Shown here in pieces: positions 5,102 to 25,634 of a DNA stretch of 32,000 nucleotides; position 1 is the stretch's first letter, and each line of letters starts with the position of its first letter. This DNA comes from Candidatus Saccharimonadota bacterium (GTDB lineage Archaea; Micrarchaeota; Micrarchaeia; Micrarchaeales; Micrarchaeaceae). The stretch is taken from NCBI GenBank assembly GCA_963705375.1, contig OY970071.1, forward strand, positions 120,001-152,000, written 5' to 3'. Made by a program: the position numbers and the translations under genes. The notes below the pieces were generated by a model. The model was not told the DNA's origin and made no database searches. It saw nothing but the letters and a program-made list of their open reading frames with translations.

Positions 5102-6013
5102 TTAGCCCTGTAGAAATCCTATTGTCGACATAGAATTAATTTTCATATATCGGTAAATATTGTATACAATATCAATCATTTTCAGCTCTCTTCTTCGTAA
5201 ACGCAAAAGTCTGCTATGTAATTCACTCCCAAATTTCCTCTTTTCTACAAAATTCACTGTTTCTACCTTACTTCTTTGATGGTACTGTCGAATTGGAAAG
5301 TGCAGAAGTAACATTCTCCGGTACTTGCCCTTCATATTTAACCCAGATTTTACTGGCCTCAGAGGTATTATTGATTTACCACCTATTACTTCACGTACAA
5401 ATTCGTGGTTTGCCTCTGAATCATATCCTTTGTCTGCGGTTACGTTTCTTATCTCAACTAATTCGCTACTTGCCTCTACAAGCGGTTTAAAGTCGATAGT
5501 ATCGTGTCTTGGCACTTGTCTGGTTACTGATGCAATTATTGCCTGATTATTTGTGTCTACTGCGATAGAATGTTTCATGAATTTCCTACGTTTACTTAAT
5601 TCAACTCCAAATTCTGCCAGTCTTAACCTATAATAATAAGACATGTAGTTCTCACCGAATCCAGTTCCATCTACTCCGACATTCGCCGTTTTTGCCTCAA
5701 ATAATTGATACGTCTTAGACAAAAGGAATTCCAACACATATGCAGGTATCCTGCTAAGAAATTTCTGCAATGTTGTAAAATGCGGTACTGATTTTTCAAA
5801 TCGAAAATAAGTCCATAACTCCTTCAAGAGATCGGTTACATCACGATACGGTTTGTTCTCGTATTTCATCAACAATATTGCAACTGCATGTTGATATTGG
5901 GTATATGTTTTCTTTGAAAATTTTCCAGAATATGGCCTAAGCACCCGTTTCACTTCGCGAAACGCAATTTCTACAAATTTCTTATATCTAGAGTTCCAAT
6001 TATCTACTATCAT
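5102..6013 (-). CDS. DDE transposase, IS4/IS5 superfamily
   Basis: 303 aa containing VDGTG, ADKGYDSE and the Y-2-R-3-E-6-K signature (YHQRSKVETVNFVEK). TATAAA on the coding strand inside the palindrome GGGGTTTATACCCC lies about 35-40 nt upstream of the ATG. Confidence 0.9.
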   Translation of the reverse strand: MIVDNWNSRYKKFVEIAFREVKRVLRPYSGKFSKKTYTQYQHAVAILLMKYENKPYRDVTDLLKELWTYFRFEKSVPHFTTLQKFLSRIPAYVLEFLLSKTYQLFEAKTANVGVDGTGFGENYMSYYYRLRLAEFGVELSKRRKFMKHSIAVDTNNQAIIASVTRQVPRHDTIDFKPLVEASSELVEIRNVTADKGYDSEANHEFVREVIGGKSIIPLRPVKSGLNMKGKYRRMLLLHFPIRQYHQRSKVETVNFVEKRKFGSELHSRLLRLRRRELKMIDIVYNIYRYMKINSMSTIGFLQG

Positions 6014-6110
6014 TTTGTCGCCAAAAACAGAATGATAGGAGGGGTTTATACCCCTTCCGAAATAGTGGAAGTGTCAGACATTTACGACGTCAGGAGGATT
6101 TCTACAGAAC
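5104..6110 (-). mobile_element. IS5-family (IS903-like) insertion sequence, about 1 kb
   Basis: Terminal inverted repeats share a perfect 13-nt core CTGTAGAAATCCT (5108-5120 and reverse complement of 6095-6107). Flanked by the direct repeat CCAACAACTT (5094-5103 and 6111-6120). Single DDE transposase ORF. Visibly more AT-rich than its surroundings. Confidence 0.85.
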
Positions 6111-6122
6111 CCAACAACTTTT

Positions 6123-6176
6123 CAAAATCACAACAAACTGTATAAAAATCGTCACAAAAGGCACGTATAAGTATCT
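6123..6176 (+). promoter_or_regulatory. island promoter module (distal box, BRE-like block, TATAAGTATCT) for 6225..7283
   Basis: CAAAATCACAACAAAC (6123-6138), CACAAAAGGCACG, TATAAGTATCT (6166-6176). Confidence 0.7.
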
Positions 6177-6224
6177 GGAAATACAAAGTGTATGCTAGAG
6201 GGCTAAACAGCAAAAGGTCGTGTA

Positions 6225-7283
6225 GTGTTCAAACATAACTCAGATAAGGCCACTTCTGATGTGCAAGAGATTACTATTGGCAACGTTGCAATCTGTATTC
6301 TGAACAGTTCGAATGCTGAGATGCAATTGGCATTGGAGCACCATAACTATCGGCTTAAACATAGAGATATGGCCGTAGAATGTATTGAAGATGGACCACC
6401 CATAGGAGTTATCGGGCTCCCTGACAGCATATGTGGACAGTATGACCTTCATCATCAACATGTAGAAATAGACTCCTCAAAGTCGACAAAGGAAACCTTT
6501 GCGCACGAGTTGTACCACCACAGGCAACGCTTGTTCTTTGATTTCTTACAAAATGCGGGCTCGGCATTCTATGAGGCCGCTGCCTACTTTGCAGGTGCAG
6601 ACTATGCATATTTTTCTGGCAGAATGGGTAATCCAAACTACCTCGACGAGTCGGCAAGCGAAGAGATTCGGTTTGCGGTTATATCGAACTTATGCGCTCG
6701 TTTTCCCGAATCATTTACCTCAGGGCTGATAAGATCCGCTGTTGCGCATGCAGTAGAGAATTCGGAGGTGTTCTGCCGTGCTGTGCTTGAAGACGCCTCG
6801 AATATTATTCGGGCTACTGAAACCCAAGAACGTAAGACTGCATTTGTAGGAAACGTGATTGCGCTGCTTGCGTTCGCTGCGAATGACTTTGACTTCGACA
6901 AGACGTACGACGTGCTGGAGTCCACTCCAGACGAAGTGCTGGATTTCCTAGCCAACGCAAATCAAGAAAACATCGAGAAAGTAATCTGCATGGTGGATGT
7001 GATTTTTGGTATGAGTAAAGAAACACAAGAGCAAACAAACAAAGCGTTCAACGATGATGCATACCTTGTAGCAAATTTGCTATCAAAATCGATGCTGCTG
7101 AAAGTAAAAGAGTATGGCAAGTTTCTGCGCATCATTCCGAGCTGGTCGGAGGCCCCAGTAAAGGACCAATTGTTTGGGATTTACACCAAAGCAGACGAAC
7201 GCGTGGTAGTTCTTCCTGTAAAGGATGACCTTCTCTGCGGGCTAAAGCCCGCAGTATCTCATCACGCCGCGAGCGTCATCTGA
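6225..7283 (+). CDS. family M: ImmA/IrrE-like (COG2856-type) HExxH metallopeptidase-domain protein, 3' end replaced by an IS200-type insertion
   Basis: HELYH at codons 94-98, followed 19 residues later by EAAAYFAGADYAYFSG (resembles the E..An.FA motif of peptidase M78). Paralogous to 8130..9935 and 11462..12334. The last 22 codons read into the IS hairpin. Confidence 0.7.
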   Translation: MFKHNSDKATSDVQEITIGNVAICILNSSNAEMQLALEHHNYRLKHRDMAVECIEDGPPIGVIGLPDSICGQYDLHHQHVEIDSSKSTKETFAHELYHHRQRLFFDFLQNAGSAFYEAAAYFAGADYAYFSGRMGNPNYLDESASEEIRFAVISNLCARFPESFTSGLIRSAVAHAVENSEVFCRAVLEDASNIIRATETQERKTAFVGNVIALLAFAANDFDFDKTYDVLESTPDEVLDFLANANQENIEKVICMVDVIFGMSKETQEQTNKAFNDDAYLVANLLSKSMLLKVKEYGKFLRIIPSWSEAPVKDQLFGIYTKADERVVVLPVKDDLLCGLKPAVSHHAASVI

Positions 7284-7879
7284 CAGGATACGTCTTGCCT
7301 CCTGATGTAATTCTGTACCGTCTTCTCGTCGCGAGGCCCAACACTTCCGTTGCTGTATCCTGCACTCCAGAAGTGACCTTGCAGATACCGCAGCCTATGG
7401 TTAGGTATTTCCTTGAAAACCACATACGACGAATATCCCTTCAGCAGTTGTACTGCAGTTGCAATCGACATTGTATTTGGAATGCCTGTTTCGAGATGTA
7501 TGTGTGCGTAATCATCGCCAAATGACATTTCCTTTATTGAGATCTTGTACCTTTCTGCAACGTTGTAGAGGGCACCACGTATTGCCGCCACGGTTTTCGG
7601 GTTCTTGAACATCTTGTATCGGTACTTCGTAACGAAGACAAGGTGCTGGAAGTTGTATTGATGACCGACGCTGTCGGCAGATGGTTCTTTATTTGCAGCG
7701 GTTCCACTATTCATGTTATCACGTATCGGCAGTTTGCGGCGCAAATTTTTCCGTGCCGCGGCTGCCTTACGCAGAAATCTACAGGAAAAGTATTTCAGTA
7801 ACTGTGCAATTCATTCACGACCTAAAGGTCGTGGTATTCTTGCCCTAAGAATAAGATCCCTTCAGGACAGCAAAAGGCA
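7218..7879 (-). mobile_element. IS200/IS605-family element carrying only tnpA (boundaries approximate)
   Basis: Subterminal perfect hairpins CTGCGGGC-TAAA-GCCCGCAG (7235-7254) and CACGACC-TAAA-GGTCGTG (7816-7833) flank tnpA. The left end TGCCTTTTGC (reverse complement ending at 7879) resembles the TGCCTTACGG end of the second copy. Confidence 0.65.
7262..7714 (-). CDS. tnpA: IS200-type HUH/Y1 transposase TnpA
   Basis: FVTKYRYKMF, the HUH motif in YAHIHLE, and the C-terminal VQNYIRRQ tyrosine helix. The ORF track starts at 7744, but MNSGTA (7714) is the more likely start. Confidence 0.9.
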   Translation of the reverse strand: MNSGTAANKEPSADSVGHQYNFQHLVFVTKYRYKMFKNPKTVAAIRGALYNVAERYKISIKEMSFGDDYAHIHLETGIPNTMSIATAVQLLKGYSSYVVFKEIPNHRLRYLQGHFWSAGYSNGSVGPRDEKTVQNYIRRQDVSCQMTLAA

Positions 7880-8129: not shown

Positions 8130-9935
8130 ATGCCAAGACCTAGGTCCATAAAACGGCAAGCAGAAGATGCTGAACAACAGATACACATAGGTATCGTGCA
8201 CTCTTGGTCAAAGAAGAACGAAGAACTCGCAAAGGAGGGGTGGGAAGTGCTGCAAGATGCGAGCAAAGCGTTCGTAGAAGAAAAGGCAAAAGAGCGGAAC
8301 ACCAGGAACGCATATATCCTCTCCAAAGCAGAAAAAGAAATGGATAGTGCGTTTGCGTATCTTGAAGATAGGGTGAAGCACGGCGGAGGTGACGGCCTGC
8401 TGCTTGAGCACGAACAGAAACCTAGACTTGAATTAGCTAAACTTCCGGACGACAAAAAGGGCGAATACAAGGACCAACGCATAACAATAGACCCGCGAAA
8501 GATGAAGGAAGGGACCATATTCCGGGAGATGTACCATTTCTGGCAGGGCATAGTCCTGCCGCTTTCACTGTACGAAGCGCCGGATCTTGCTGACGCTCCG
8601 CCGCAACTATGGAGGATGAAAAAGTTGCACAGAAATACAAGTGGAAATCCGGACTTCGTTGAGGCGGGGGCAGCCTTCGCCGAGGCGGACTACTTGTATT
8701 TTTCGGGCAGGATGGGCAACGTGAACTACCTTGACGAGCCGGTAAGCGAAAAAACCAAGCTTAAGCTTTCAGTGATTTCGCGAATGATTCCAGAGAATAC
8801 AGACCCAGAACTTCAAGACAGGTATCCAGAACTTCAGAATCAAAAATTATATTATAACATCGAGATGCGCCCTGAAACCTTCCTAAATATACTGGCTGAC
8901 AGGATAGACTCTGTGTTTAGGCATGCAGACAAAGACATAGCGGCGTTCTACAATGCGATAGTTGAGGACATAATGTCAGAGATTCAGGCAAACAGATCGG
9001 GTGACAAGAGCTTGGGTCGCATGACAGCAATCCCGAATCCGGGACGCCTTGCTGCGAATTTTATAGCAGACATGGCAGACGAGCATCTGAGTTTTGCGAT
9101 AGCCGCGCTTGCTTTTGCATCTACGGGCTTCGACATAGACCGAACGTATGCTGTGCTAGAGTCTGCTCCTGAAGAGGTGCTGAGGGCCATAGCCGGCACT
9201 AATCAAGAAAGAGTCGCTGAAGTCAAAGGGATAATTGGCCGCATACTTCTTTCCACGGGCTACGAAGCGGATGACCTCTCAAGCGAAACACCTGGAGGCA
9301 GCACATACCTTCTAAGGAAAGCGCTGGAGAACGCACCAGAGGGCCTTGACGCTGGTGGCTGTGTCATGCTGTCAACGCCAAAGGGGACGAAAAAGGGCCA
9401 GAAGACTCCTAGCGCTGCGGAAAATGAAGAACTAGCGCTTGAAGATATGGGCCTCTTAGAGGCATTGAAGAAAATGGATGCTGATTTTGATGCAGAACTA
9501 CAAGAAGCCGGGACTCCTTCTAAATGTGACTCATTGCACGCAGATGGGGCAAGGCCCGTGCAAGCGAAAATGATGCTAGACGACCCGTTGCTTAAAGAGT
9601 GGCAGGATATGGATGAGGACCTTAAGCCGCAGGCAATCGGAGAGCAAGAGTTAACTGATGCTCATCTGGCGAACGAAGCTCTGCTGAGGCCACATGATGT
9701 GCTTGATATGCAGGTAAAGATGGGAGAACCTGCTCTGGCAAATGAGGAAGCAATGGATCTTCAAGGACAAGACCTGAACGAGCTACTCAGGGCATTTGAT
9801 CTCATGGGTGATGGTTCAGAGATGCCCCTCGAAACAATACCTCCGACTGTTGCAGATGATGCCTCTGAAAGACAATCGGAAAAACTGACAAACTTGACCC
9901 AAAACAAACGAACATCTGACTCGCATCAGCAATGA
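8130..9935 (+). CDS. family M paralog with degenerate active site (REMYH) and a long acidic C-terminal tail
   Basis: Aligns with the other M proteins over FVEAGAAFAEADYLYFSGRMGNVNYLDEP and AALAFASTGFDIDRTYAVLESAPEEVL. The first His of HExxH is Arg. The last 200 aa or so are rich in D and E. Confidence 0.75.
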   Translation: MPRPRSIKRQAEDAEQQIHIGIVHSWSKKNEELAKEGWEVLQDASKAFVEEKAKERNTRNAYILSKAEKEMDSAFAYLEDRVKHGGGDGLLLEHEQKPRLELAKLPDDKKGEYKDQRITIDPRKMKEGTIFREMYHFWQGIVLPLSLYEAPDLADAPPQLWRMKKLHRNTSGNPDFVEAGAAFAEADYLYFSGRMGNVNYLDEPVSEKTKLKLSVISRMIPENTDPELQDRYPELQNQKLYYNIEMRPETFLNILADRIDSVFRHADKDIAAFYNAIVEDIMSEIQANRSGDKSLGRMTAIPNPGRLAANFIADMADEHLSFAIAALAFASTGFDIDRTYAVLESAPEEVLRAIAGTNQERVAEVKGIIGRILLSTGYEADDLSSETPGGSTYLLRKALENAPEGLDAGGCVMLSTPKGTKKGQKTPSAAENEELALEDMGLLEALKKMDADFDAELQEAGTPSKCDSLHADGARPVQAKMMLDDPLLKEWQDMDEDLKPQAIGEQELTDAHLANEALLRPHDVLDMQVKMGEPALANEEAMDLQGQDLNELLRAFDLMGDGSEMPLETIPPTVADDASERQSEKLTNLTQNKRTSDSHQQ

Positions 9936-9984
9936 TGGCTGACATATGTTTTGGCGCTTTTTGCAAAATAACAACAGCAGGTAG

Positions 9985-14654: not shown

Positions 14655-14776
14655 AATAACTGCTTACTAAGCAACTTTGGCAGAGGGCTTTCTAAAAACA
14701 AGCTTTACAGAATCACGAACATTCCGCAACAAACTGCATAAAGAGAAAAATGTATATATTTGGAAAGCAGAAGATA

Positions 14777-15193
14777 ATGCGTGGTACTGTGTCTTCTAGA
14801 ACAAAAAAAGAGAGCAAGGCAAAAGCACCCAAAGAGGACGAGTATGTCATGGAATTCGTCCATCAAGGCGGGCCCGATCTTGCCATAACGTCCGATGCCC
14901 GTAACGTGGCTAAACTGTTATCAAATTTTACTGGACTGTCCGTGCACGAGGACTCGAACTGCCTAAACCTTGTTCCAGAAGGGTCAAGAAATAAATTATG
15001 GCCGATCTTTACGATAAGCGCAGAAGAGGGCAGAGGTGTTGTTGTCTCGTTTTTTGGTTGGAACGGTCCTGCATCAGAACAGAGGGCCATTCTTCGAAAT
15101 GTTGAAAATGCGCTGAATGCTCTAAGTGCTGATTTTGAAATAGATGGAAACGCGAACAGCATAGTGGTTCTACAGCCAAGACACGGAGGCTGA
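14777..15193 (+). CDS. hypothetical protein, family V
   Basis: Paralog of 3008..3469. TGTATATATTT at 14751-14761 sits inside the longer tracked ORF, so ATG 14777 (MRGTVSS) is the likely start. Confidence 0.65.
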   Translation: MRGTVSSRTKKESKAKAPKEDEYVMEFVHQGGPDLAITSDARNVAKLLSNFTGLSVHEDSNCLNLVPEGSRNKLWPIFTISAEEGRGVVVSFFGWNGPASEQRAILRNVENALNALSADFEIDGNANSIVVLQPRHGG

Positions 15194-15310
15194 GGAAATA
15201 GCAAAACTCTTTTAGAATTTCTATGATAGTGTTGGAATAATTATTAAATAGGTGCCAAAAGAGAAATCAACACCCATAAAGCATATAGTAAAAAATCGAA
15301 AAGTGAATGA

Positions 15311-15989: not shown

Positions 15990-16420
15990 GCCGAAATTGG
16001 ATCTATTTCTGCTTCCATTCCATTTTAGTGAAATCGTACGAGTTCATGTTGGCAAAATGTGCAATTCCATAACAACGGAATGGAAATCCAATCTTGCAAA
16101 AGCATACGTTCCGCTTTTTTGGAAAACAGGCCGTTCTGGTTAAGCAACCGGTATTGAACGCGAAACATGCCCAAAGATCTTAGCGATTCCTCGAAGGACC
16201 TTTTTTAGCTCAATTTCATGGAACGTGCACAGCAAGTTTCCATGATTTCGGAACGCAGTCTCATAGCACAGGAATATACGCCAGTACGTCCTTCCCTCGA
16301 CAAAAAGTGCCCTTATTTTGCGCTATGCTGCACGATTCAATACACATATGGTATATTCTCCCTTTGCCGTATTGAAGCAGCTGGGAGCGAGTGTGAGAGA
16401 TTCTAACATTGATTAAGAAA
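15990..16420 (-). pseudogene. possible decayed DDE transposase fragment
   Basis: Minus-strand frames give protein-like pieces broken by stops and frame changes (GKDVLAYIPVL, YETAFRNHGNLLCTFHEIELKKVLRGIAKIF, NQNGLFSKKAERMLLQDWISIPLL). YETAFRN weakly recalls the RWxIExxFrxxK block of IS4-type transposases. Confidence 0.25.
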
Positions 16421-16446
16421 ATCTAAAAGAATCATATATTGACCTG

Positions 16447-17244
16447 CTATCTGCGTAGTAGCTCCCTTGTGGCCTGTTTAGCATCCTCTAAAGCTGCAAC
16501 CCACATCGGCGCAGTTGTGCCATCAAAAGGTATGTCATGCGCTTCTTCCAGGGTACTGCCGTTATTTCTCAGAGTTTCAGGATTTGATAGTAAGAGAGAG
16601 GGCTGTAAGAACTGTGCAATATGTATGTCGTGAGATATGATGCGCACAATGGCATACGTGGACTCCTCAGTCATAGTATTACAGTCCAGTATTGTCCAAA
16701 CAAGGAAGTCAAACATACTTGGCTGTAACAATGCAGGCAGCAACTCTAACCCGTCTTTCTCCCAATGCTTAAACCCGAACGTCAGAAGGGCATTCTTACG
16801 TTCATCTGGGAGCTGTCTTTCGTCAAGCAACTCCCAAAGCTTAAGTGCTTCTTGGTTTTCTGCCACAGTCTTATTCATGACATAGTTGCGCCTAATTGGC
16901 AGATTAGGGCCTATGTCTATGAGATAATGGTTCAAAGGTACGTAAATATCGGACTCCATTCCGCCGAAATACTTCACGGCAGAGAGGGCGTAACTTGCGT
17001 AGAACGAAGAATGTGGGTAATCTACCAGAGTGCGCCGGATGGCTGCTTCTACTTCTTCCAGAGTATTCCGCTTATCAGAAAGATCATACATTGCGCTGAT
17101 TGCTGCCTTGGCCACGTGCTTATTGCCCTTGTCTATTTCGCTTCTAATAAATTCCATCCATTCTTCGCGCAGGCTTTCTGGTGCCAAAGCAGCGACTTCT
17201 TTGAAGAGTGCGCTGTGCTTCTGTATATCTTTTTGAATGTACAT
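16447..17244 (-). CDS. hypothetical protein, family N (N-terminal domain only, lacks the W-type C-terminal half)
   Basis: Aligns with the first 260 aa or so of 21682..22914 (LAPESLREEWMEFIRSEIDKGNK versus LAPERLRGEWVEFIKSEIGTGNK; ALKLWELLDERQLPDERKNALL versus AMELWKVLEEKHVPNERKKNIL). Confidence 0.7.
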   Translation of the reverse strand: MYIQKDIQKHSALFKEVAALAPESLREEWMEFIRSEIDKGNKHVAKAAISAMYDLSDKRNTLEEVEAAIRRTLVDYPHSSFYASYALSAVKYFGGMESDIYVPLNHYLIDIGPNLPIRRNYVMNKTVAENQEALKLWELLDERQLPDERKNALLTFGFKHWEKDGLELLPALLQPSMFDFLVWTILDCNTMTEESTYAIVRIISHDIHIAQFLQPSLLLSNPETLRNNGSTLEEAHDIPFDGTTAPMWVAALEDAKQATRELLRR

Positions 17245-17284
17245 ATTGTGGGCACCTTAACGGTATTGCATCGGTCTATTAGCT

Positions 17285-17323
17285 TTCTCTCAAACTTGCT
17301 TGGAATTACTAAAACTCTTCAAG
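17285..17323 (-). repeat. hairpin repeat copy A (in the 5' leader of 16447..17244)
   Basis: TTCTCTCAAACTTGCTTGGAATTACTAAAACTCTTCAAG. Absent from the otherwise homologous leader of the paralog 21682..22914. Confidence 0.7.
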
Positions 17324-17343
17324 TAAATTTCTATCTACGCTTA

Positions 17344-17357
17344 GGAGATATTTATGC
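17344..17357 (-). promoter_or_regulatory. promoter GCATAAATATCTCC for 16447..17244
   Basis: CGCTTAGGAGATATTTATGC is shared with the paralog promoter at 22961-22980. Confidence 0.55.
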
Positions 17358-17401
17358 TTTGTTTTTCAGCATCTTAGCAGCAAAAGCAAGAAAAAAGCAA
17401 C

Positions 17402-17440
17402 TTTTCTCAAACATGCTTGGAGTTGCTAAGAGAATTTAAG
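17402..17440 (-). repeat. hairpin repeat copy B
   Basis: TTTTCTCAAACATGCTTGGAGTTGCTAAGAGAATTTAAG, 47 nt after the stop of 17488..17694. Confidence 0.7.
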
Positions 17441-17487
17441 CAGATAAGACCGGAGACTGATAATCGGGCTGGAAAGCGATGTGGGAT

Positions 17488-17694
17488 TCAGCCCCTATTC
17501 TCATTCAGTTCAACAGCTAATGCATCTAAGGCAGCGTACATCTCTTCACAAGTGATCTTCTTATCTTCAGCAATCGTCAACGAAGACACCCGATAAGATG
17601 GTCCGCTGTTGCCAGATTCTACTCGCATATTTGTCGAATCCAAAACGGTTTTAGAAGCCGGCATTGCTGGTGGGTTTTTCGAGATCATGGCCAT
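17488..17694 (-). CDS. small hypothetical protein (68 aa)
   Basis: Has its own consensus promoter (TATAAGTAT on the coding strand, plus 17731-17739) 37-45 nt upstream of the ATG. Confidence 0.45.
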   Translation of the reverse strand: MAMISKNPPAMPASKTVLDSTNMRVESGNSGPSYRVSSLTIAEDKKITCEEMYAALDALAVELNENRG

Positions 17695-17730
17695 TGTAAC
17701 AACCTTTCTATAAGATATATCGTCTAGGAA

Positions 17731-17788
17731 ATACTTATATCCTCGGTTTTTTTGCAGTTTATGCGTGTAAGTTTGTGCTTTTGTAAGC
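17731..17788 (-). promoter_or_regulatory. island promoter module for 17488..17694
   Basis: On the coding strand: GCTTACAAAAGCACAAA (plus 17772-17788), then GCAAAAAAACC, then TATAAGTAT (plus 17731-17739). Confidence 0.6.
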
Positions 17789-17820
17789 TAACTATGTCGG
17801 AACCGGAAAATAAAGCATCA

Positions 17821-17860
17821 TTTTCTCAAACTTGTTTGGAATTGCTAAGATAGTTTGGGA
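17821..17860 (-). repeat. hairpin repeat copy C
   Basis: TTTTCTCAAACTTGTTTGGAATTGCTAAGATAGTTTGGGA, 25 nt after the stop of the methyltransferase gene. Confidence 0.8.
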
Positions 17861-17885
17861 TAAACTTATTCTATCCTCAATGAAG

Positions 17886-18578
17886 CTATTTTCGCAGTAA
17901 CACGATTATTGCCACTTTCCTGCTCTGATCTTTGTAATAGAGCGGACCGTCACCGTCTAAAGCAGCTAATTCGCCAAGTGTAAATGTGTGTGTTACTACG
18001 TCTGTTGGTTTTGGTGAAAGGGACGCAAGTGCTTTCTTGATTCCGCGTTCGTCAAGTGAGATTCGTTGTATTGGTTCGCCCTGTTCTGGAGGCAGTGTTC
18101 CTTTATACGTCACATCAAATACGAGATAGTTTCTTGTCACACGCCACATATCCTGGAGTGCGTAGATATACTCCCTACCCAACAGGGATATTGTGGCAAA
18201 AGTAGTGACCATATCGAAAGATGCACTACGGAAGCACAGCTGTGTTGCATTGCCTTGGATGTATTCAAATGTGGATCTGGATCTGCTCTTGTGTCGCTTT
18301 GCAAGCATCAATGCTTCTGAGGATACATCAAGATTTACCATACTTTTTTGTATTTGGTTGTCAGCGTAATCCAAGTCACAAGCGGTGCCGTATTTTCCAC
18401 AACCCACATCCAAAACTTGCGTTACTTGTGTTAGATCTGCATGCAATCGGGTGAACGCCATAAATGCGCCTGGACTGCTGAGCTCGTCAGGATTTTCTCT
18501 CCACTCTTTATTCCAGTAACCTATTACTGACTGTTTTGTGGTCAGTTCCTTGACAGAGTCCGACTTTTTAATATTCAT
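17886..18578 (-). CDS. class I SAM-dependent methyltransferase
   Basis: Motif I VLDVGCGKYG, followed by NLDVS and FDMVTTFATI. The tracked ORF start (18614) lies inside the hairpin repeat, so MNIKK (18578) is the likely start. Confidence 0.8.
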   Translation of the reverse strand: MNIKKSDSVKELTTKQSVIGYWNKEWRENPDELSSPGAFMAFTRLHADLTQVTQVLDVGCGKYGTACDLDYADNQIQKSMVNLDVSSEALMLAKRHKSRSRSTFEYIQGNATQLCFRSASFDMVTTFATISLLGREYIYALQDMWRVTRNYLVFDVTYKGTLPPEQGEPIQRISLDERGIKKALASLSPKPTDVVTHTFTLGELAALDGDGPLYYKDQSRKVAIIVLLRK

Positions 18579-18604
18579 AATATATCCCGATAGAGCAAAA
18601 CATA

Positions 18605-18646
18605 TTTTTCTCAAACTAACTTGGAAATGCTAAAAGAATCATAGAC
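18605..18646 (-). repeat. hairpin repeat copy D (degenerate 3' half)
   Basis: TTTTTCTCAAACTAACTTGGAAATGCTAAAAGAATCATAGAC, 7 nt after the stop of 18654..18869. Confidence 0.65.
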
Positions 18647-18653
18647 TGGCATG

Positions 18654-18869
18654 CTATTTATGCATCCGTCCCTTTGCAAGCTCATTGGCGCTTTTGACTG
18701 GATCATTATCCGTATGTAGTACCTTGCCGTTAAGTTCAGACAGTATCATATCTAAGGCATTTGCTTGCTCCTCAACATTAGGCGTCTCTGACAGCGATGC
18801 ATCTTCATTTAAGATATCGCGCAGATTTTTGCAGGAATCCATTAATCTCTCTTTTTTATAAGTATCCAT
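18654..18869 (-). CDS. small hypothetical protein (71 aa)
   Basis: Acidic ORF in line with neighbouring genes. A TATA-like AGTATATTTG on the coding strand lies about 20-25 nt upstream. Confidence 0.45.
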   Translation of the reverse strand: MDTYKKERLMDSCKNLRDILNEDASLSETPNVEEQANALDMILSELNGKVLHTDNDPVKSANELAKGRMHK

Positions 18870-19074
18870 TCGAACACCTTTCGATCAAATATACTCTTAG
18901 GCAAACTTATGGGTTCAGTCTTCAGGTTTAGGTGAATCTGACTTGGTGATTCATCTGGCCATTAGCGTCATGACGCGCATATGTCATCTTATAGAGAAAG
19001 GGCCTTGTTCCTTCACAGGTTCTACAATGTGCCCATTTCTCTTCAGATGCTTACCGCTCATCAGGTTTCTCTTC

Positions 19075-19299
19075 TTATGCCTGCTCCTCAGGATCTTTTT
19101 CCTGCGTGATTATGAGTGCTTGCAACCTGAAGTTAGCAGCTTCTCCTAGTTCTTTAGGCTCTAATGCCAGTTCAGGATTTCTCAGTAGTGCCACTACTCT
19201 CTCGGCATAGACTCTGGTCCAATCACACTTAGATTCTGGATCTATCCGTTTAGCTATCTCGTCCAAAGTCATTGGTCTGTCTTTTTGTATCGTGGTCAT
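19075..19299 (-). CDS. small hypothetical protein (74 aa)
   Basis: Complete island promoter module upstream (plus 19331-19386). Confidence 0.5.
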   Translation of the reverse strand: MTTIQKDRPMTLDEIAKRIDPESKCDWTRVYAERVVALLRNPELALEPKELGEAANFRLQALIITQEKDPEEQA

Positions 19300-19330
19300 G
19301 TAAATCCTTGTTAACTGATATTTTTTAAGA

Positions 19331-19386
19331 AATACTTATATGTTATGTTTTCTGGCAATTTGTCTGTAAATATTTGTGATTTTGAC
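19331..19386 (-). promoter_or_regulatory. island promoter module for 19075..19299
   Basis: On the coding strand: GTCAAAATCACAAA (plus 19373-19386), GCCAGAAAAC, TATAAGTATT (plus 19331-19340). Confidence 0.65.
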
Positions 19387-19433
19387 GTCCTATGTCACAA
19401 TCAGAACACAAAGTGTATTTGTGCCTTCTCATG

Positions 19434-20876
19434 CTACGCGCTTGATGCCGCTTTTGGTAGGTTGAGTGCTTTGACTGCCGCTATGGCTTCGGCATTGCTA
19501 AATCCGAGTTCTTTGAGCTTTGCGGCAATTATCCTCTCCATCATTAGTTGTTATTCCGAAAGCCCGTGTAGAAGTCACTTTTATTGCATTTTCAAGAGCA
19601 AGGTCTGCTTTGTGTCTCTCCCCGCGCTCCATAAACTGCTTTCTTTCGGCCAGAAGTTGCACGACACCGTCTATTGCTAGAGAGGTACATTCCTCTCTCG
19701 GTACTTCTAAAACTCTGAGCGCCATCATCACATTTGGCTGAATGCCGTCTATCTTTCCTTCCTCCATAAGGTGTACAATTCCCCCTAGCAGCTGTCGTCT
19801 CGCGTCTTCCAAGGTCAGTCTGAAAGTTTTGAATATGTGTGAAGCCTCGTCTATTCGTGCGCTGTTCATGAGCTCTCCAAATTGCGCTATTGCCAGAGGT
19901 ATCACTTCGGGTATTGAGGCATCTATCTCCTTTCTTGTTAGTTCAAGATCGGATATGACATTTGCGGCTTTGGATATCTCCCCGTCGTTTACAGACTCCG
20001 AAACTGTTTCTAACACATATTTTCGCGGTATTCCGAAAATAGCGGCCATTTTTAGGGCGCCCTCTCCACGCCCTGCCTTTACACTCTTTCTAACTTCTTT
20101 CATCGCATCGGGTTTGAAAGATTCGAGCTCCTCAATTGTTAGTTTAAAATTCAAGGCTGTTTCTAAGGCATCATGTGCCCAAAGACTACCTTTAACCAGA
20201 AGTTCTCCAACTTCTACCGTCACCTCTTCTATTAGTTTATCGTCTATATCCTCCCTTTTAAGTCCGTACTTCAAGAATATTCTTGAGGCTTCCAGTGCGC
20301 TCTTCTGATCCACAAGCGCTTGAACTACTGCCAGAACCTTTGATTTTGGCAGAGAATGGTCTGAGCCTATAAGGGAACTCTTTTATGGCTTCGACTTTGT
20401 CTACTCCATCTGCCACAAGCTCATCAAATAACTTTTTTGCATCAACCCTTGTTAAGTCAAAGATAGGAGCGACCATTTCATACGCGTTCAGCCATATTCC
20501 TTCTTCTTTGCTCATCATTTTTATCTGCGCTTTCGCATCCATACGCAAAGCAAGCTGCTCTATCAACACGGGCATGAAGGATTCTGCGTCATTTCTTGTT
20601 AAATGATGGTATCTTTTAGGCCTAACCCTGCTTTTGTGGCATCAAACAAATCTCCTTCCTTTATGAGAGTCCCGATCGCCTTCACTACCGCCGCTTTCTT
20701 CTTTGGGCTGGCAGATTGAGATCCAAGGTGCTCTTTTCTACTTCCGTCTGACTTATACCTGTTCGCTGTTCTAAATCTAGAAGCGCTGCAAATTGTTTTA
20801 CTTCTTTTTCTACAACTTCGTCCCTATTCGAGTTTTTTGACGTAGCAGGCAAAGAACCACTTATTATCATGTTCAA
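19434..20876 (-). pseudogene. family R helical-repeat protein gene broken by at least four frame changes
   Basis: ORFs 20685..20876, a 20599..20715 frame, 20258..20575 (extendable upstream), 19498..20313 and a 19434..19545 frame each continue the same repeat pattern (for example PKKKAAVVKAIGTLIKEGDLFDATKA, LTRNDAESFMPVLIEQL, PKSKVLAVVQALVDQKSALEASRIF, AFGITTND then RIIAAKLKELGFSNAEAIAAVKAL). Confidence 0.6.
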
Positions 20877-20960
20877 TGATATTTAAGCAATACATATCGA
20901 ACGATGCCATAAGCCTTGCTTGATAGTCCGACTTGGCCACAACCCGTGCGCAAAACATAT

Positions 20961-20999
20961 TTTTCTTAAACTTGCTTGGAATTGCTAAGATAATTTAAG
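20961..20999 (-). repeat. hairpin repeat copy E
   Basis: TTTTCTTAAACTTGCTTGGAATTGCTAAGATAATTTAAG, 8 nt after the stop of 21008..21496. Confidence 0.8.
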
Positions 21000-21007
21000 A
21001 CGACAGT

Positions 21008-21496
21008 TCAAATGACGGATACATCTGTGCGAAGAAATCTTGCATCTCCAATTATTGCAACTACTTTCTCATCGGGTATTTCAAAGGCGGAGGCTACGTA
21101 GCAGACTGCCTTCTTCCATCCAATCAAGTCTTTACTCACTTTATCCACAAAACCTGGAAGCTGCGCAATCACCTCTGGTTGGAAAGGTTCAACTTCCTCT
21201 TTTGTTAGTTTGAAAAGTGTGACTGCGTCTGCAGCACAATATAACTTTCCTTTTATCAAAAGCACTCCGACTGCTTTTGTTACTTCTGGTTTGAAGAAGC
21301 CTATCTCATCGTTCATTCCAAAAACAGTGATCGCGTCCCGGGCAATGCGCGGATAACCCCTCTCCAAAAATGTTCTAACCTCAAATCGGCCTGCGTCTTC
21401 TTTTAATCCGTGTTTATCAAGATAGTCGAGATTCCATTTTTCTCCTACACCTATCGGGCCTTGTTGCGGCTTTGATTTGTTCGTTGCGTGCTGCAT
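21008..21496 (-). CDS. family R helical-repeat protein (3-4 repeats)
   Basis: ARDAITVFGMNDEIGFFKPEVTKAVGVLLIKGKLYC and AADAVTLFKLTKEEVEPFQPEVIAQL follow the repeat consensus of 27646..29481. Confidence 0.7.
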   Translation of the reverse strand: MQHATNKSKPQQGPIGVGEKWNLDYLDKHGLKEDAGRFEVRTFLERGYPRIARDAITVFGMNDEIGFFKPEVTKAVGVLLIKGKLYCAADAVTLFKLTKEEVEPFQPEVIAQLPGFVDKVSKDLIGWKKAVCYVASAFEIPDEKVVAIIGDARFLRTDVSVI

Positions 21497-21604
21497 GTAG
21501 CTCCTCGTAGTTCTATAATAATAGGAAATATTTAAGCAGATATGCCGGCTCTATAAAACTTTGCTTAAGTGCCTGACTTCACTGCAATCAGTGCGCAAAA
21601 CATA

Positions 21605-21645
21605 TTTTTCTCAAACTTGCTTGGAATTGCTAAGATAGTTTGGGG
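21605..21645 (-). repeat. hairpin repeat copy F (best copy)
   Basis: TTTTTCTCAAACTTGCTTGGAATTGCTAAGATAGTTTGGGG, 36 nt after the stop of 21682..22914. Confidence 0.8.
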
Positions 21646-21681
21646 TATGTGTGTTTAAATTGAACGCTAGTCATGCCCAGC

Positions 21682-22914
21682 TCACAAAGCAGCAGGCGCT
21701 TTGGCAAATACGTATAGCTGATCTTCAAGATCACAGCAAGGAGTAAAGCCGTTACGCACGGCTTCATTCCATAGCTCTTTTGCATAAGAGAGGTGCCTGT
21801 CATCAGCGGACACGAGGTCTCCGATTAAGGTGAATTTGCACATGAGTGCAGCACACTCCGAAACGTCGTTAACAGCATCCAGTATGGCGGCATCACTTGC
21901 TTCATAAGCATATGGATTTGTATTAGCATCTGCACGCAGGCTGACCTCTGCAATAGCGTCATCTTCTGCTTCGCTCATAACGTCATAAACTGCTTCCTCT
22001 GTCGCATTGCATGCCAGTTGATGGACAAAATCCATTACCGTAGACCGCGATGCCGCCTGTGCCACTGACTGGGCTACGATGGTCGCTTCTTTCCGTTTTG
22101 CGTTCCACATGGCGTTCCGGTTTGCACCTACTGGCGCATCAAATGGCACAGCACTTATTGCCGCACCAAGTGCAGCAAATTGCGCCGAGGCCAACGTACC
22201 GCCATAGTGCGTGATCCACTCCTCCTTCGGCGCGCATTGCGGACGGAAGAAAGAAGTAGTTGGGATGTCATACGATATGAATTTTATAACAAGGTACTTG
22301 ACAGAGTCCGGTACGTTTGCAGTCTCCAGCATCATCCATAATTTGAGCATATCTGGCTTTAGTAGCGAAGGCAGCAGCTCAAATCCTGATTCATTCAAAT
22401 GATCAAATACAAAACCCAGAATATTTTTCTTACGTTCATTAGGGACGTGTTTTTCTTCGAGCACTTTCCATAGCTCCATGGCTCCTTGGCTTCCTTCCAC
22501 GGCCTTATGTATAAGATAGTTGCGCTTGATTAGCTCATCTGTGCTCGTGTTTACAAGATAGTCTCTTCGATGTTCGGCGTCTGCCGGCTCACTCGCAGTA
22601 TCGTTTGGGGAAGAAGAGCCACGCAGTAGCACATACTTATCGAACTCCAAACTTCCACTGAAATAGTTAACAGCAGAAAAGACATAGCTCGCATCGAAAG
22701 ATTGAGTCTCTGTAAACCAACTCCTGATTACTGCCTCTGCCTCTTCTGGAGGATTTCGCATCGCATTGATTGCAGCCAAGACCCTATCCTTATTACCAGT
22801 TCCTATCTCGCTTTTAATAAATTCGACCCACTCTCCGCGCAGCCTTTCCGGTGCTAAATTCACGATTTCTTTGATACGCTCGTTACCTTTTTGAGTATCA
22901 TTATGACCGTTCAT
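21682..22914 (-). CDS. family N domain fused to family W domain (410 aa)
   Basis: The N-terminal 260 aa or so are paralogous to 16447..17244. The remainder carries W signatures (LVIKFISYDIPTTSFFRPQCAPKEEWITHYGG, then AKELWNEAVRNGF). Confidence 0.75.
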   Translation of the reverse strand: MNGHNDTQKGNERIKEIVNLAPERLRGEWVEFIKSEIGTGNKDRVLAAINAMRNPPEEAEAVIRSWFTETQSFDASYVFSAVNYFSGSLEFDKYVLLRGSSSPNDTASEPADAEHRRDYLVNTSTDELIKRNYLIHKAVEGSQGAMELWKVLEEKHVPNERKKNILGFVFDHLNESGFELLPSLLKPDMLKLWMMLETANVPDSVKYLVIKFISYDIPTTSFFRPQCAPKEEWITHYGGTLASAQFAALGAAISAVPFDAPVGANRNAMWNAKRKEATIVAQSVAQAASRSTVMDFVHQLACNATEEAVYDVMSEAEDDAIAEVSLRADANTNPYAYEASDAAILDAVNDVSECAALMCKFTLIGDLVSADDRHLSYAKELWNEAVRNGFTPCCDLEDQLYVFAKAPAAL

Positions 22915-22966
22915 GTCTCAGAGCACCGTGCCTTTCTATATCGATAGATATCTAATATGCCGCTTA

Positions 22967-23027
22967 GGAGATATTTATGCACTTCTTTTAATTGCAAGTT
23001 GTTTGTTGTTTTTTGTGATTTTGTAAG
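22967..23027 (-). promoter_or_regulatory. island promoter module for 21682..22914
   Basis: On the coding strand: CTTACAAAATCACAAA (plus 23012-23027), then GCATAAATATCTCC (plus 22967-22980). Confidence 0.6.
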
Positions 23028-23083
23028 AGTGTTATCTACAGAAACTGTGAAGTAATAGTACGTCATATTGCAGACCGAAGGTG

Positions 23084-23120
23084 CTCTCAAACTAAGTTGA
23101 AAATATTCTCATTGCTCACT
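23084..23120 (-). repeat. hairpin repeat copy G (degenerate)
   Basis: CTCTCAAACTAAGTTGAAAATATTCTCATTGCTCACT resembles copy D. Lies 25 nt after the stop of 23146..23658. Confidence 0.45.
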
Positions 23121-23145
23121 AGAGCTAGCTAGGAATCATTCTGCC

Positions 23146-23658
23146 CTATTCTGAACTTTTGGTTCGCTCAAACTTCTTTAGATCGTGAGCAGAGTCCGCT
23201 GCGTCTTTGTTAACGCGCTTAAGAATCACCACAGAAGCTGCATTCGCAGGTTTAAGGCGACTCCCTGCATCACAGATGAAATAATCATTGATGCTGTCGC
23301 GTGCGAAGCAAATCGACGCAACACGTCCGTTCTCGGGTTCTGAATCACGGATGTATCCCCACACCAAGTTTTTGTATCCATCGAATATCTCTATAAACTC
23401 AAGGAAGAGTCTATGGTTAGACTTTATTTCGTTTGCCTCAGAAAGTGTGAGCATTTCCCAACTATGGCCGTCCAATCGGCATCTTCTTGCTATTAGCTCT
23501 GTCAGGGTGAAGTCCAGCCCTGCACTTCCAGAGTATGCCATAACCAAGAAGCTCTTGCGGCTTACATTAATCTCTTCGGACCATATCGGTTCTGGCATCC
23601 TAACTTCTTTTTTGATTTGCATTTTATCTACCATAAGTCTAACGTTGTGTTGCCGCAT
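23146..23658 (-). CDS. hypothetical protein (start may be MPEPIW at 23598)
   Basis: 170-aa ORF. Faint resemblance to DUF1566/Lcl-type domains (GHSWEMLTLSEANEI, VVILKRV). Not reliable. Confidence 0.5.
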   Translation of the reverse strand: MRQHNVRLMVDKMQIKKEVRMPEPIWSEEINVSRKSFLVMAYSGSAGLDFTLTELIARRCRLDGHSWEMLTLSEANEIKSNHRLFLEFIEIFDGYKNLVWGYIRDSEPENGRVASICFARDSINDYFICDAGSRLKPANAASVVILKRVNKDAADSAHDLKKFERTKSSE

Positions 23659-24988: not shown

Positions 24989-25510
24989 TCAGGTCGTTCT
25001 GTAAAGTTCTTTAACAACGTCATTAGATATGTCAAAGATGTAGAGTGCTGCGCCTAGTTCATAACCATTATGGCTCTCGCGAAGCGCATGAAGATACTCC
25101 ATTATCTTTGCTTCAAAGGCGTTTTTCTCTCTTGGCCTTAGACCTTCTGTCAGGGCGTCATGCGTTGCAAAAATATTCGGGTAGTCCATATCTTGGAAGT
25201 TGGCTACAAGTCTTGCGGCGCGTATCATATTGTCTCTTACGTTTTCGTCGGACAGCACAAGTGCGTGAAGATAGTTCTGAATGTCCCGTTTGAAAACAGA
25301 GGCAAATTCTTTTGGGTTTATTCCAGCATTTTCAATCTTATTTTGGACGTCTTGCCCCTTCTCTGTCGAGGCAGCATACTCTATAAGTCGTGCAGCTGTT
25401 GTCTGTGTTGGTGCGTGTCGTTGTGAATGGACTTCCATAATCTCATCTCCACAATGCTGTTGTGCCATTAGATATTTATGCATTTCTTTTATTTGTTTGA
25501 GATTGTTCAC
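24989..25510 (-). CDS. hypothetical protein (173 aa)
   Basis: Longest ORF at this locus. Plus-strand overlaps look antisense. Confidence 0.55.
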   Translation of the reverse strand: MNNLKQIKEMHKYLMAQQHCGDEIMEVHSQRHAPTQTTAARLIEYAASTEKGQDVQNKIENAGINPKEFASVFKRDIQNYLHALVLSDENVRDNMIRAARLVANFQDMDYPNIFATHDALTEGLRPREKNAFEAKIMEYLHALRESHNGYELGAALYIFDISNDVVKELYRTT

Positions 25511-25634
25511 ACATCTTCAAACAGGACTGCTCTGAAAAATGTGAGCGGACACTAGCAACGTTTGATTGGAAGCGCTAATTACCCGGCAGCTAGGGAATAT
25601 TTTAAAATGGTTCAGCTCTCAATCTAAACTAGCA

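Follow-up and report, generated by a model that had tools for sequence, protein, structure and literature searches.

A short gene-boundary repeat family in a stretch of orphan genes from a deep-branching DPANN archaeon

Several kinds of short non-coding sequence are known to occupy the gaps behind genes. Repetitive extragenic palindromic sequences (REP, REPIN) are short (20-40 nt) imperfect palindromes that are extragenic and often lie just after genes, and roles in termination or mRNA stability have been proposed for them (PMC3733652). Miniature inverted-repeat transposable elements (MITEs), archaeal ones included, are small, non-coding, multi-copy and intergenic, with copies in varied states of decay. 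Archaeal terminators are U4 tracts that require no hairpin and are read together with aCPSF1 (PMC8716108), and in integrons the attC sites form imperfect palindromes of one orientation directly after consecutive unrelated genes. In this study we analysed a repeat family in a stretch of 32,000 nt (the window), positions 120,001 to 152,000 of contig OY970071.1 in assembly GCA_963705375.1. An earlier note on this DNA had described seven hairpin repeats of 40 nt placed after consecutive genes, and had proposed that they act as a hairpin terminator or 3' untranslated region element, as a miniature mobile element, or as attC-like recombination sites that bound single-gene cassettes. We found that the repeat behaves most like the REP/MITE-type small repeats and the archaeal oligo-U terminators. 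Its appearance is that of a small gene-boundary repeat of an ordinary sort, and not of a system that recombines gene cassettes.

The repeat was searched for in the window and in two extensions, L003, which adds ~10 kb on the right, and L084, which adds ~4 kb on the left; this covered 52 kb of the 1.2-Mb contig. On the + strand the 39-mer was found at 17285, 17402, 17821, 18606, 20961 and 21606, with 9, 6, 1, 10, 4 and 0 substitutions compared to the consensus of the earlier note; most of the start positions given there were correct and two were off by one (18605 and 21605). An nhmmer profile built from the six copies recovered all of them with E = 4e-17 to 1.5e-12. No further significant profile match was detected in the 52 kb, including the ~44 kb outside the array, and no − strand copy of the 39-mer was present at <=12 substitutions. 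The seventh copy that had been claimed, at 23084, was a decayed relic (E = 1.8). All six intact copies were intergenic relative to the minus-strand genes, which were also called by an independent gene caller on the Logan assembly contig with the same sequence. The claims of a single orientation and of a strictly intergenic position were thus borne out (6/6 on the + strand, all in gaps), and no copy inside a gene or in the opposite orientation was found in the 52 kb. Because non-coding DNA makes up only ~26% of the region 15.2-23.1 kb, the location of 6/6 copies in gaps is not due to chance.

Copy F (21593..21645, E = 4e-17) equals the consensus and lies 37 nt past the stop codon of 21682..22914, which encodes a 410-aa orphan protein. 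Copy C (17810..17860, E = 1.4e-14) is 38/39 identical to copy F and lies 26 nt past the stop of the class I S-adenosylmethionine (SAM) methyltransferase gene 17886..18578, so that the two follow unrelated genes. Copy E (20948..21001, E = 3e-16) starts 8 nt past the stop of 21008..21496 and is 83% identical to copy F over 86 nt reaching towards the next promoter (repeat family D4). Copy B (17393..17441, E = 4e-14) follows the stop of 17488..17694 by 47 nt, and the TATA box of 16447..17244 comes ~48 nt downstream of it. Copy D (18593..18645, E = 6e-13) follows the stop of 18654..18869 by 9 nt and precedes the ATG of the methyltransferase gene (18578) by 28 nt. The distances of copies B to F agree with the 7-47 nt from minus-strand stop codons that had been described earlier. 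Copy A (17277..17323, E = 1.5e-12) is located in the 5' leader of 16447..17244, and its core is 26/29 identical to that of copy F.

In addition to the intact copies we identified decayed ones by gapped local alignment, with scores judged against 20,000 random 80-mers from the remaining sequence (null maximum 34). Relics X and Z scored 44-47, above all 20,000 random 80-mers, and the score of relic G (32) was reached by 2/20,000. Relic G (23084..23120, +), the seventh copy mentioned above, lies 25 nt past the stop of 23146..23658 and matches copy D at 18/20 positions, with an internal insertion. Relic Z (16401..16440, +; E = 0.011, score 44-46) is of the D type, with 74% identity to copy D over 50 nt including a common right flank (family D16); it is found 6 nt past the stop of 16447..17244, where minus- and plus-strand genes converge, and has kept two T4 tracts on the sense strand. 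Relic X (15204..15246, +; score 47 against copy C) lies 10 nt past the stop of the plus-strand gene 14750..15193. It aligned better in the + orientation (47) than inverted (36), and therefore the orientation is fixed relative to the chromosome and not to the neighbouring gene. All nine copies share this one orientation, though the genes next to relic X run the opposite way. Eight of the nine lie 6-47 nt past a stop codon, all nine are in non-coding gaps, and pairwise identity is graded from 38/39 down to the relics. The family is thus built from a discrete intergenic unit of ~47-58 nt, present in six intact copies and in about three that have decayed. Within the DNA that was covered, it is confined to 8 kb of orphan genes. 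The spacing between copies is irregular (117-2355 nt) with genes in between, and no cas or orc1 gene was found; CRISPR repeats, iterons and origin boxes were rejected on these grounds.

The repeat is real and, in the collections searched, new in sequence. The degenerate 26-mer core gave no match in GTDB species genomes or IMG/VR viral contigs. The sole match in JGI metagenomes, at 3068-3093 of L001 (JAEIGA010149017.1), is a single copy with no other similarity and was judged to be due to chance; by eye, this A+T-rich bacterial contig carries the match downstream of several TIR-domain/defence-like genes. In Rfam 15, at the gathering score, the repeat had no match and only a tRNA-Arg was recognised in the window.

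Alignment of the copies divided the unit into three parts: an A/T-rich tail of ~10-17 nt, then a near-invariant block of 29 nt, TTTTCTCAAACTTGCTTGGAATTGCTAAG, followed by a variable arm of ~10 nt. The tail, which reads AAAACATAT in copies D, E and F, gives both strands an oligo-T tract. Within the block the motif TTGCT is found two times at a distance of 10 nt. The arm is poorly conserved, with the variants GATAGTTTGGG, GATAATTTAAG, GAGAATTTAAG, AAGAATCATAG and AACTCTTCAAG, and completes an imperfect palindrome only in the best-preserved copies. The hairpin with an outer and an inner stem that the earlier note had proposed did form on the + strand as RNA in 3/6 copies, with -12.9, -8.6 and -15.2 kcal/mol for C, E and F (z -4.3, -2.9 and -4.9), but A, B and D lacked it. 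Folding of the mRNA-sense strand was weak and did not surpass shuffles (z -0.4 to +0.7 in a context of 71-76 nt), and single-stranded DNA folded weakly as well (-3.6 to -5.2 kcal/mol).

The paired changes between copies E and F, earlier taken to preserve the stem, come down to a single truly compensatory pair, which is found in copy E; in four pairs the only departures are unpaired cells. Copy B joins an F-type 5' arm to an E-type 3' arm and therefore has a broken stem. In a test of covariation, 358/500 column shuffles reached the observed score, so that covariation was no better than in the shuffled columns and gave the stem no support. Since the hairpin forms in only half of the copies and covariation does not exceed shuffles, it is the sequence block and not the hairpin that is conserved; the palindrome survives, in decay, in those copies that are best preserved. 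The idea that only the + strand is able to pair was dropped as well, as the mismatches in B and E are of the opposite kind and the asymmetry does not hold throughout the copies; wobble pairs are found on either strand when all copies are compared.

Behind minus-strand genes, all copies show a sense-strand tract of T4-T6 that is located in the unit or directly past it, as is expected of an oligo-U terminator; in copy B these are T6 and T4 tracts just past the core. In copies B to F the edge of the unit has, in addition, a T4-T5 tract on the + strand. Copy A, which lies in a 5' leader, has no sense-strand T-tract beyond the core. U4+ tracts shortly past stop codons are likewise the mark of the aCPSF1/FttA-assisted terminators of archaea (PMC8716108). 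By contrast, the archaeal terminators known so far have no conserved 29-nt block and are not repeat families, and termination at the present locus is only predicted. The 10-mer ATATGTTTTG is common to the tail of copies D, E and F and to CATATGTTTTGGCGCTTTTTGC (9936-9965), located after the stop of the unrelated gene 8130..9935; this 10-mer may be a general terminator motif of this genome. The bacterial-type pattern of a G+C-rich hairpin with a T-run was not fitted by any copy, and a terminator scan for hairpin plus T-run flagged 0 copies. Of the terminator or 3' untranslated region role proposed earlier, the hairpin was thus not upheld on the sense strand, and an oligo-T boundary role is plausible.

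The genes around the repeat carry regular promoters. The consensus is AAAA.. N CATAAATATCT / TATAAGTATCT, and a position weight matrix made from 15 promoters of this genome scored real sites at 12-33. A consensus TFB-recognition element (BRE)/TATA site precedes most of the island genes (scores 12-30); as the genes have strong promoters of their own, each gene is a separate transcription unit. The BRE/TATA promoter of 16447..17244 is found at 17340..17366 (−, score 27.9), and further strong promoters follow repeats at 17723-17749, 21520-21546 and 22963-22989 (all −). Counted from the repeat, the TATA box of the next promoter lies ~48-107 nt further on, with the exception of copy D; gaps of this kind therefore call for a boundary signal. 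One promoter lies between copies A and B. The uniformity of the promoters is unusual in itself: the 15 sites consist of AAAA.., a few bases and CATAAATATCTCC or TATAAGTATCT, for example at 6156-6182 (+), 27592-27618 (+) and 22963-22989 (−). Five unrelated genes moreover have longer stretches of promoter sequence in common, 52-67 nt in length (families D7 and D8, located at 17717, 19318, 22957, 24811 and 27283). One promoter-consensus site, 25464-25490 (−, score 22.1), falls inside the 5' end of the GTG-started open reading frame (ORF) 24989..25510, whose true start codon is probably further downstream.

Several observations speak for copying of the repeat independent of the genes: the near-identity of copies C and F behind unrelated genes, the graded pairwise identity, the chromosomal orientation of relic X, and the location of copy A. 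As the earlier note had stated, copy A lies between the promoter and the ATG (17244) of 16447..17244, and the leader of the paralog 21682..22914 lacks a segment of ~47 nt. The two paralogs have 36% protein identity and an identical 20-nt promoter core; the distance from promoter site to ATG is 96 nt in the former and 49 nt in the latter, and copy A fills the difference of 47 nt. Beyond this difference the leaders are too diverged to prove a clean insertion. The flanks of the unit group the copies in conflicting ways: D, E and F have a common left flank, and the right flanks group as C/F, B/E and D/Z. These discordant groupings suggest, at the sequence level, recombination or conversion between copies. 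Copies E and F, 83% identical over 86 nt towards the promoters of downstream paralogs, were for that reason duplicated as a unit of repeat, promoter and gene.

From these observations we tentatively favour, at somewhat less than even confidence, a small non-autonomous repeat that is copied between gene boundaries and serves as a putative terminator/spacer module. The repeat would be copied from boundary to boundary without the neighbouring genes, always in one chromosomal orientation, and some copies would then decay. The oligo-U termination signals it supplies would be the reason why it is tolerated or retained in the narrow space that separates a stop codon from the next promoter. The tract on the sense strand would end the transcript of the upstream gene, and the tract on the opposite strand would stop antisense transcription running back from the next promoter. 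The unit would in this way act as a boundary and spacer module between tightly packed, separately promoted genes. The mobile-element role named in the earlier note is plausible but unproven: the near-identity of C and F beside unrelated genes and the 47-nt leader gain speak for it, and the absence of terminal inverted repeats, target-site duplications and a cognate transposase speaks against it. The likeness to MITEs extends to the small, non-coding, multi-copy and intergenic nature of the unit, its varied decay and the apparent gain in a gene leader. The unit is, on the other hand, much shorter than typical MITEs, and in the six copies neither clear terminal inverted repeats at the unit ends nor a consistent flanking duplication was found.

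Several points weigh against this reading. Its main weakness is that a terminator needs no conserved block of 29 nt, and the role of the block is left unexplained. A T4 tract is short, and DNA as rich in A+T as this has many of them. The duplication that gave rise to E and F took in the downstream paralogs with their promoters, and an upstream regulatory site would fit this equally well. Neither target-site duplication, nor cognate transposase, nor terminal inverted repeats beyond the decaying palindrome were detected. All copies lie within 8 kb, which is unusual for a mobile repeat, with the scan covering the above-mentioned 52 kb of the contig.

Instead of a functional module, the copies could be neutral leftovers of serial local duplications of gene plus spacer, kept similar by gene conversion and without function. 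We consider this unlikely, though it would account for the fact that the copies are local, of the same orientation and next to two paralog pairs and a pseudogene. Decay is visible in G, Z and X and in the hairpin arms of A, B and D, and the promoter blocks of families D7 and D8 show that other short sequences are also repeated in the same region. Neutral leftovers do not, however, explain why C and F are 38/39 identical beside unrelated genes, nor why the 29-nt block is near-invariant while its flanks diverge. The apparently clean gain of 47 nt in the leader with copy A is not accounted for either.

A second alternative takes the 29-nt block as an operator or upstream regulatory site, bound by a regulator that is possibly one of the island proteins of 68-74 aa, and co-regulating the downstream promoters. 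Conservation of sequence and not of structure speaks for such a site, as do the two TTGCT motifs in the block. The E/F duplication as repeat-promoter-gene points in the same direction, as the proteins are only 32% identical while the 86 nt are 83% identical; so do the bracketing of one promoter by copies A and B and the decay of relic Z, which has no downstream gene. Regulator sites in archaea usually abut or overlap the BRE/TATA. Here the distance to the TATA box varies from ~48 to 107 nt, no consensus promoter is present between copy D and the next ATG, and relic X points against the direction of the genes beside it. None of the island proteins had a detectable DNA-binding domain. We regard an operator as distinctly unlikely.

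A REP-like sequence mobilised by an IS200 element was also considered, in which a Y1 (HUH) transposase would act on the + strand hairpin and copy it in one strand orientation. Two Y1 genes of the IS200/IS605 family are present in the window, 8-9 kb to the left and 7 kb to the right of the cluster, which is a likeness to the REP/REPIN systems. The left one, 7262..7744 (−; region 7232-7850), is 40% identical in its product to the right one, 29953..30495 (+; region 29940-30530). A gene for a zinc alcohol dehydrogenase is interrupted by the right element, which points to past activity of the family. The nine copies in one chromosomal orientation regardless of gene direction would be expected from such a mechanism, and only the + strand folds well in copies C and F. 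Both Y1 genes passed the NCBI cut-off for IS200/IS605 (86 and 126 bits vs 55) and failed that for REP-associated transposases (24 and 44 bits vs 80). Both have their own GC-rich perfect hairpins with TTTA/GTTA loops, which are unrelated to the repeat and were found nowhere else in the window.

No copy of the repeat flanks a Y1 gene, and the GTAG or CGTC tag that marks REP sequences (PMC3733652) is absent at either end of the unit in every copy. The nearby Y1 genes are of the IS200 type, and no REP-associated tyrosine transposase (RAYT) gene is flanked by the repeat. Inverted doublets as in REPIN are likewise missing, all copies being direct. REP/REPIN sequences are numerous and dispersed over the genome, whereas the repeat described here is clustered in 8 kb with none in the other ~44 kb scanned, and its palindrome is found in only half of the copies. 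With a weak hairpin in single-stranded DNA, half of the copies without hairpin and wobble pairs on both strands, mobilisation by a Y1 transposase is improbable.

The Y1 elements and a third mobile element were described further as part of the annotation. The flanks of 7262..7744 carry the perfect hairpins CTGCGGGC-TTTA-GCCCGCAG and CACGACC-TTTA-GGTCGTG, and its 3' end overlaps the 352-aa orphan ORF 6225..7283. To the right of 29953..30495, the ORF 30484..31413 (−) encodes ADH_N and the first 80 positions of ADH_zinc_N, and to the left 29648..29908 (−) encodes a typical alcohol dehydrogenase C-terminus, ...RYRFVIDMSSLKE; this suggests recent Y1 transposase activity at the split gene. The Logan contig L003 starts at 30502, near the right end of this element. 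An IS5-family DDE element occupies 5108-6107, with the transposase at 5102..6013 (NCBIfam IS5_2, 174 bits), 25-nt terminal inverted repeats CTGTAGAAATCCT and a low G+C content (36.5%). The assembly contig L084 ends at 5131, inside the end of this element, which is therefore probably multi-copy or variable. An origin of the repeat from IS5 or IS200 ends was rejected, as the ends of the unit resemble neither CTGTAGAAATCCT nor the IS200 copies of the window and their GC-rich hairpins.

Site-specific recombination sites that bound single-gene cassettes, integron-like or as a tandem att/dif-like array, would have arms of ~13-nt inverted sequences, CAAACTTGCTTGG and CTAAGATAGTTTG, around a 5-nt centre. 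As in integrons, the copies are of direct orientation with unrelated genes between them, and the best copies form an imperfect palindrome of 13-5-13. The conflicting groups of left flanks (D, E, F) and right flanks (C/F, B/E, D/Z) also fit this explanation. The core sites of attC have the consensus RYYYAAC / GTTRRRY. The outer arms of the unit, ...AAAC / GTTT..., bear a superficial likeness to it, with 5/7 positions matched per site. Against recombination sites stands that attC conserves structure, an imperfect palindrome with extrahelical bases, over sequence and the present repeat conserves sequence without structure. Conservation does not extend to the outer right arm. Most cassettes of integrons lack a promoter and are expressed from a shared one, and the genes here each have a strong promoter. 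Neither IntI nor another recombinase was found: no tyrosine or serine recombinase was detected in the ORFs of >=100 aa of the window or in the ten island proteins (Pfam, PHROGs, NCBIfam), and the IntI-like or tyrosine recombinase gene that the earlier note had suggested to look for beside the array was not present among these ORFs. The attC-like part of the earlier proposal was therefore not supported.

The 340-aa and 410-aa island proteins have no PDB or family match, and neither these two nor the 170-aa protein gave a PDB sequence match. No variant arrangement of the locus is known; in the collections searched no second version with cassette variation was found. The assembly contig with the array ends inside a tRNA-Arg gene at 25669, a possible variable boundary, but the repeat is unrelated to tRNA. 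We regard such recombination sites as highly unlikely. The same low expectation applies to the bolder idea that the 29-nt block is the core site of an unrecognised recombinase and the 8 kb an array of cassettes with their own promoters, gained, lost and shuffled without an IntI homologue.

The tRNA-Arg(CCG) gene itself lies at 25633-25708 (+, Rfam match), and the Logan contig that holds the whole array ends at 25669 by computation. This end may correspond to a repeated sequence or to a strain-variable boundary adjoining the orphan island. No partial copy of the tRNA-Arg was found elsewhere in the window, and an att site derived from the tRNA was rejected since the repeat has no similarity to it.

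The weakest explanation, a + strand promoter or small RNA gene with AAAACATATTTTT as BRE/TATA, a start near CTAAG and antisense RNAs to gene 3' ends, would fit the end of conservation about where transcription would start, the AAAACATAT found both in D, E and F and in a true promoter (31408-31434) and the strong + strand RNA hairpin in C, E and F, but is hardly likely at all, because the promoter matrix gave <=6.7 on either strand compared to 12-33 for real sites (on which a promoter on either strand was rejected), the TATA-like part is not conserved in A, B and C, and Rfam had no match.

The island consists of a run of minus-strand orphan genes, 16447..23658, separated by the repeats, and nearly all genes of the region are orphans; the SAM methyltransferase 17886..18578 is the only island gene with a family. 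The smaller genes 17488..17694, 18654..18869 and 19075..19299 are orphans on the − strand, as are the paralogs 16447..17244 and 21682..22914. The gene 21008..21496 (−) is a paralog of a frameshifted pseudogene at ~19498-20876 (−), and 23146..23658 (−) lies upstream of relic G. For the 410-aa protein no homologue except itself was found, and a profile of the two paralogs matched few remote unannotated proteins and no viral loci. A housekeeping-type phosphoesterase had its nearest relatives at 44-45% identity, and these were not syntenic; the collections searched held no close relative of this genome. Just right of the window, a serine hydroxymethyltransferase was at most ~67-68% identical over its full length to those of Candidatus Micrarchaeota metagenome-assembled genomes, and therefore the host is a deep-branching member of the Micrarchaeota, a DPANN archaeon.

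Two neighbours of the island deserve mention. The gene 26760..27263 (−) encodes 167 aa with a weak match to the TFIIB repeat (E = 0.0013, below the Pfam cut-off); judged from the sequence, the product may be a truncated TFB-like factor adjoining the island. The gene 27637..29481 (+) encodes a 614-aa protein made up of tandem repeats of 34/37 aa; their period in the DNA is 102/111 nt, and they contain the motif AFKLTxEEVxxFKP, which recurs in 21008..21496 and in the adjacent frameshifted pseudogene. A word-indexed protein search with this protein returned no match, not even the query itself.

The practical value of the finding is modest, as it concerns one local family in one uncultivated genome; it would be important only if the recombination-site explanation, which so far has no support, were true, in which case an integron-like system would exist in a DPANN archaeon. 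If the explanation that we favour is true, the family is a clear example of a short gene-boundary repeat in a DPANN archaeon. Transcription signals in DPANN are essentially unstudied, and the repeat offers a ready-made sequence for tests of termination or protein binding.

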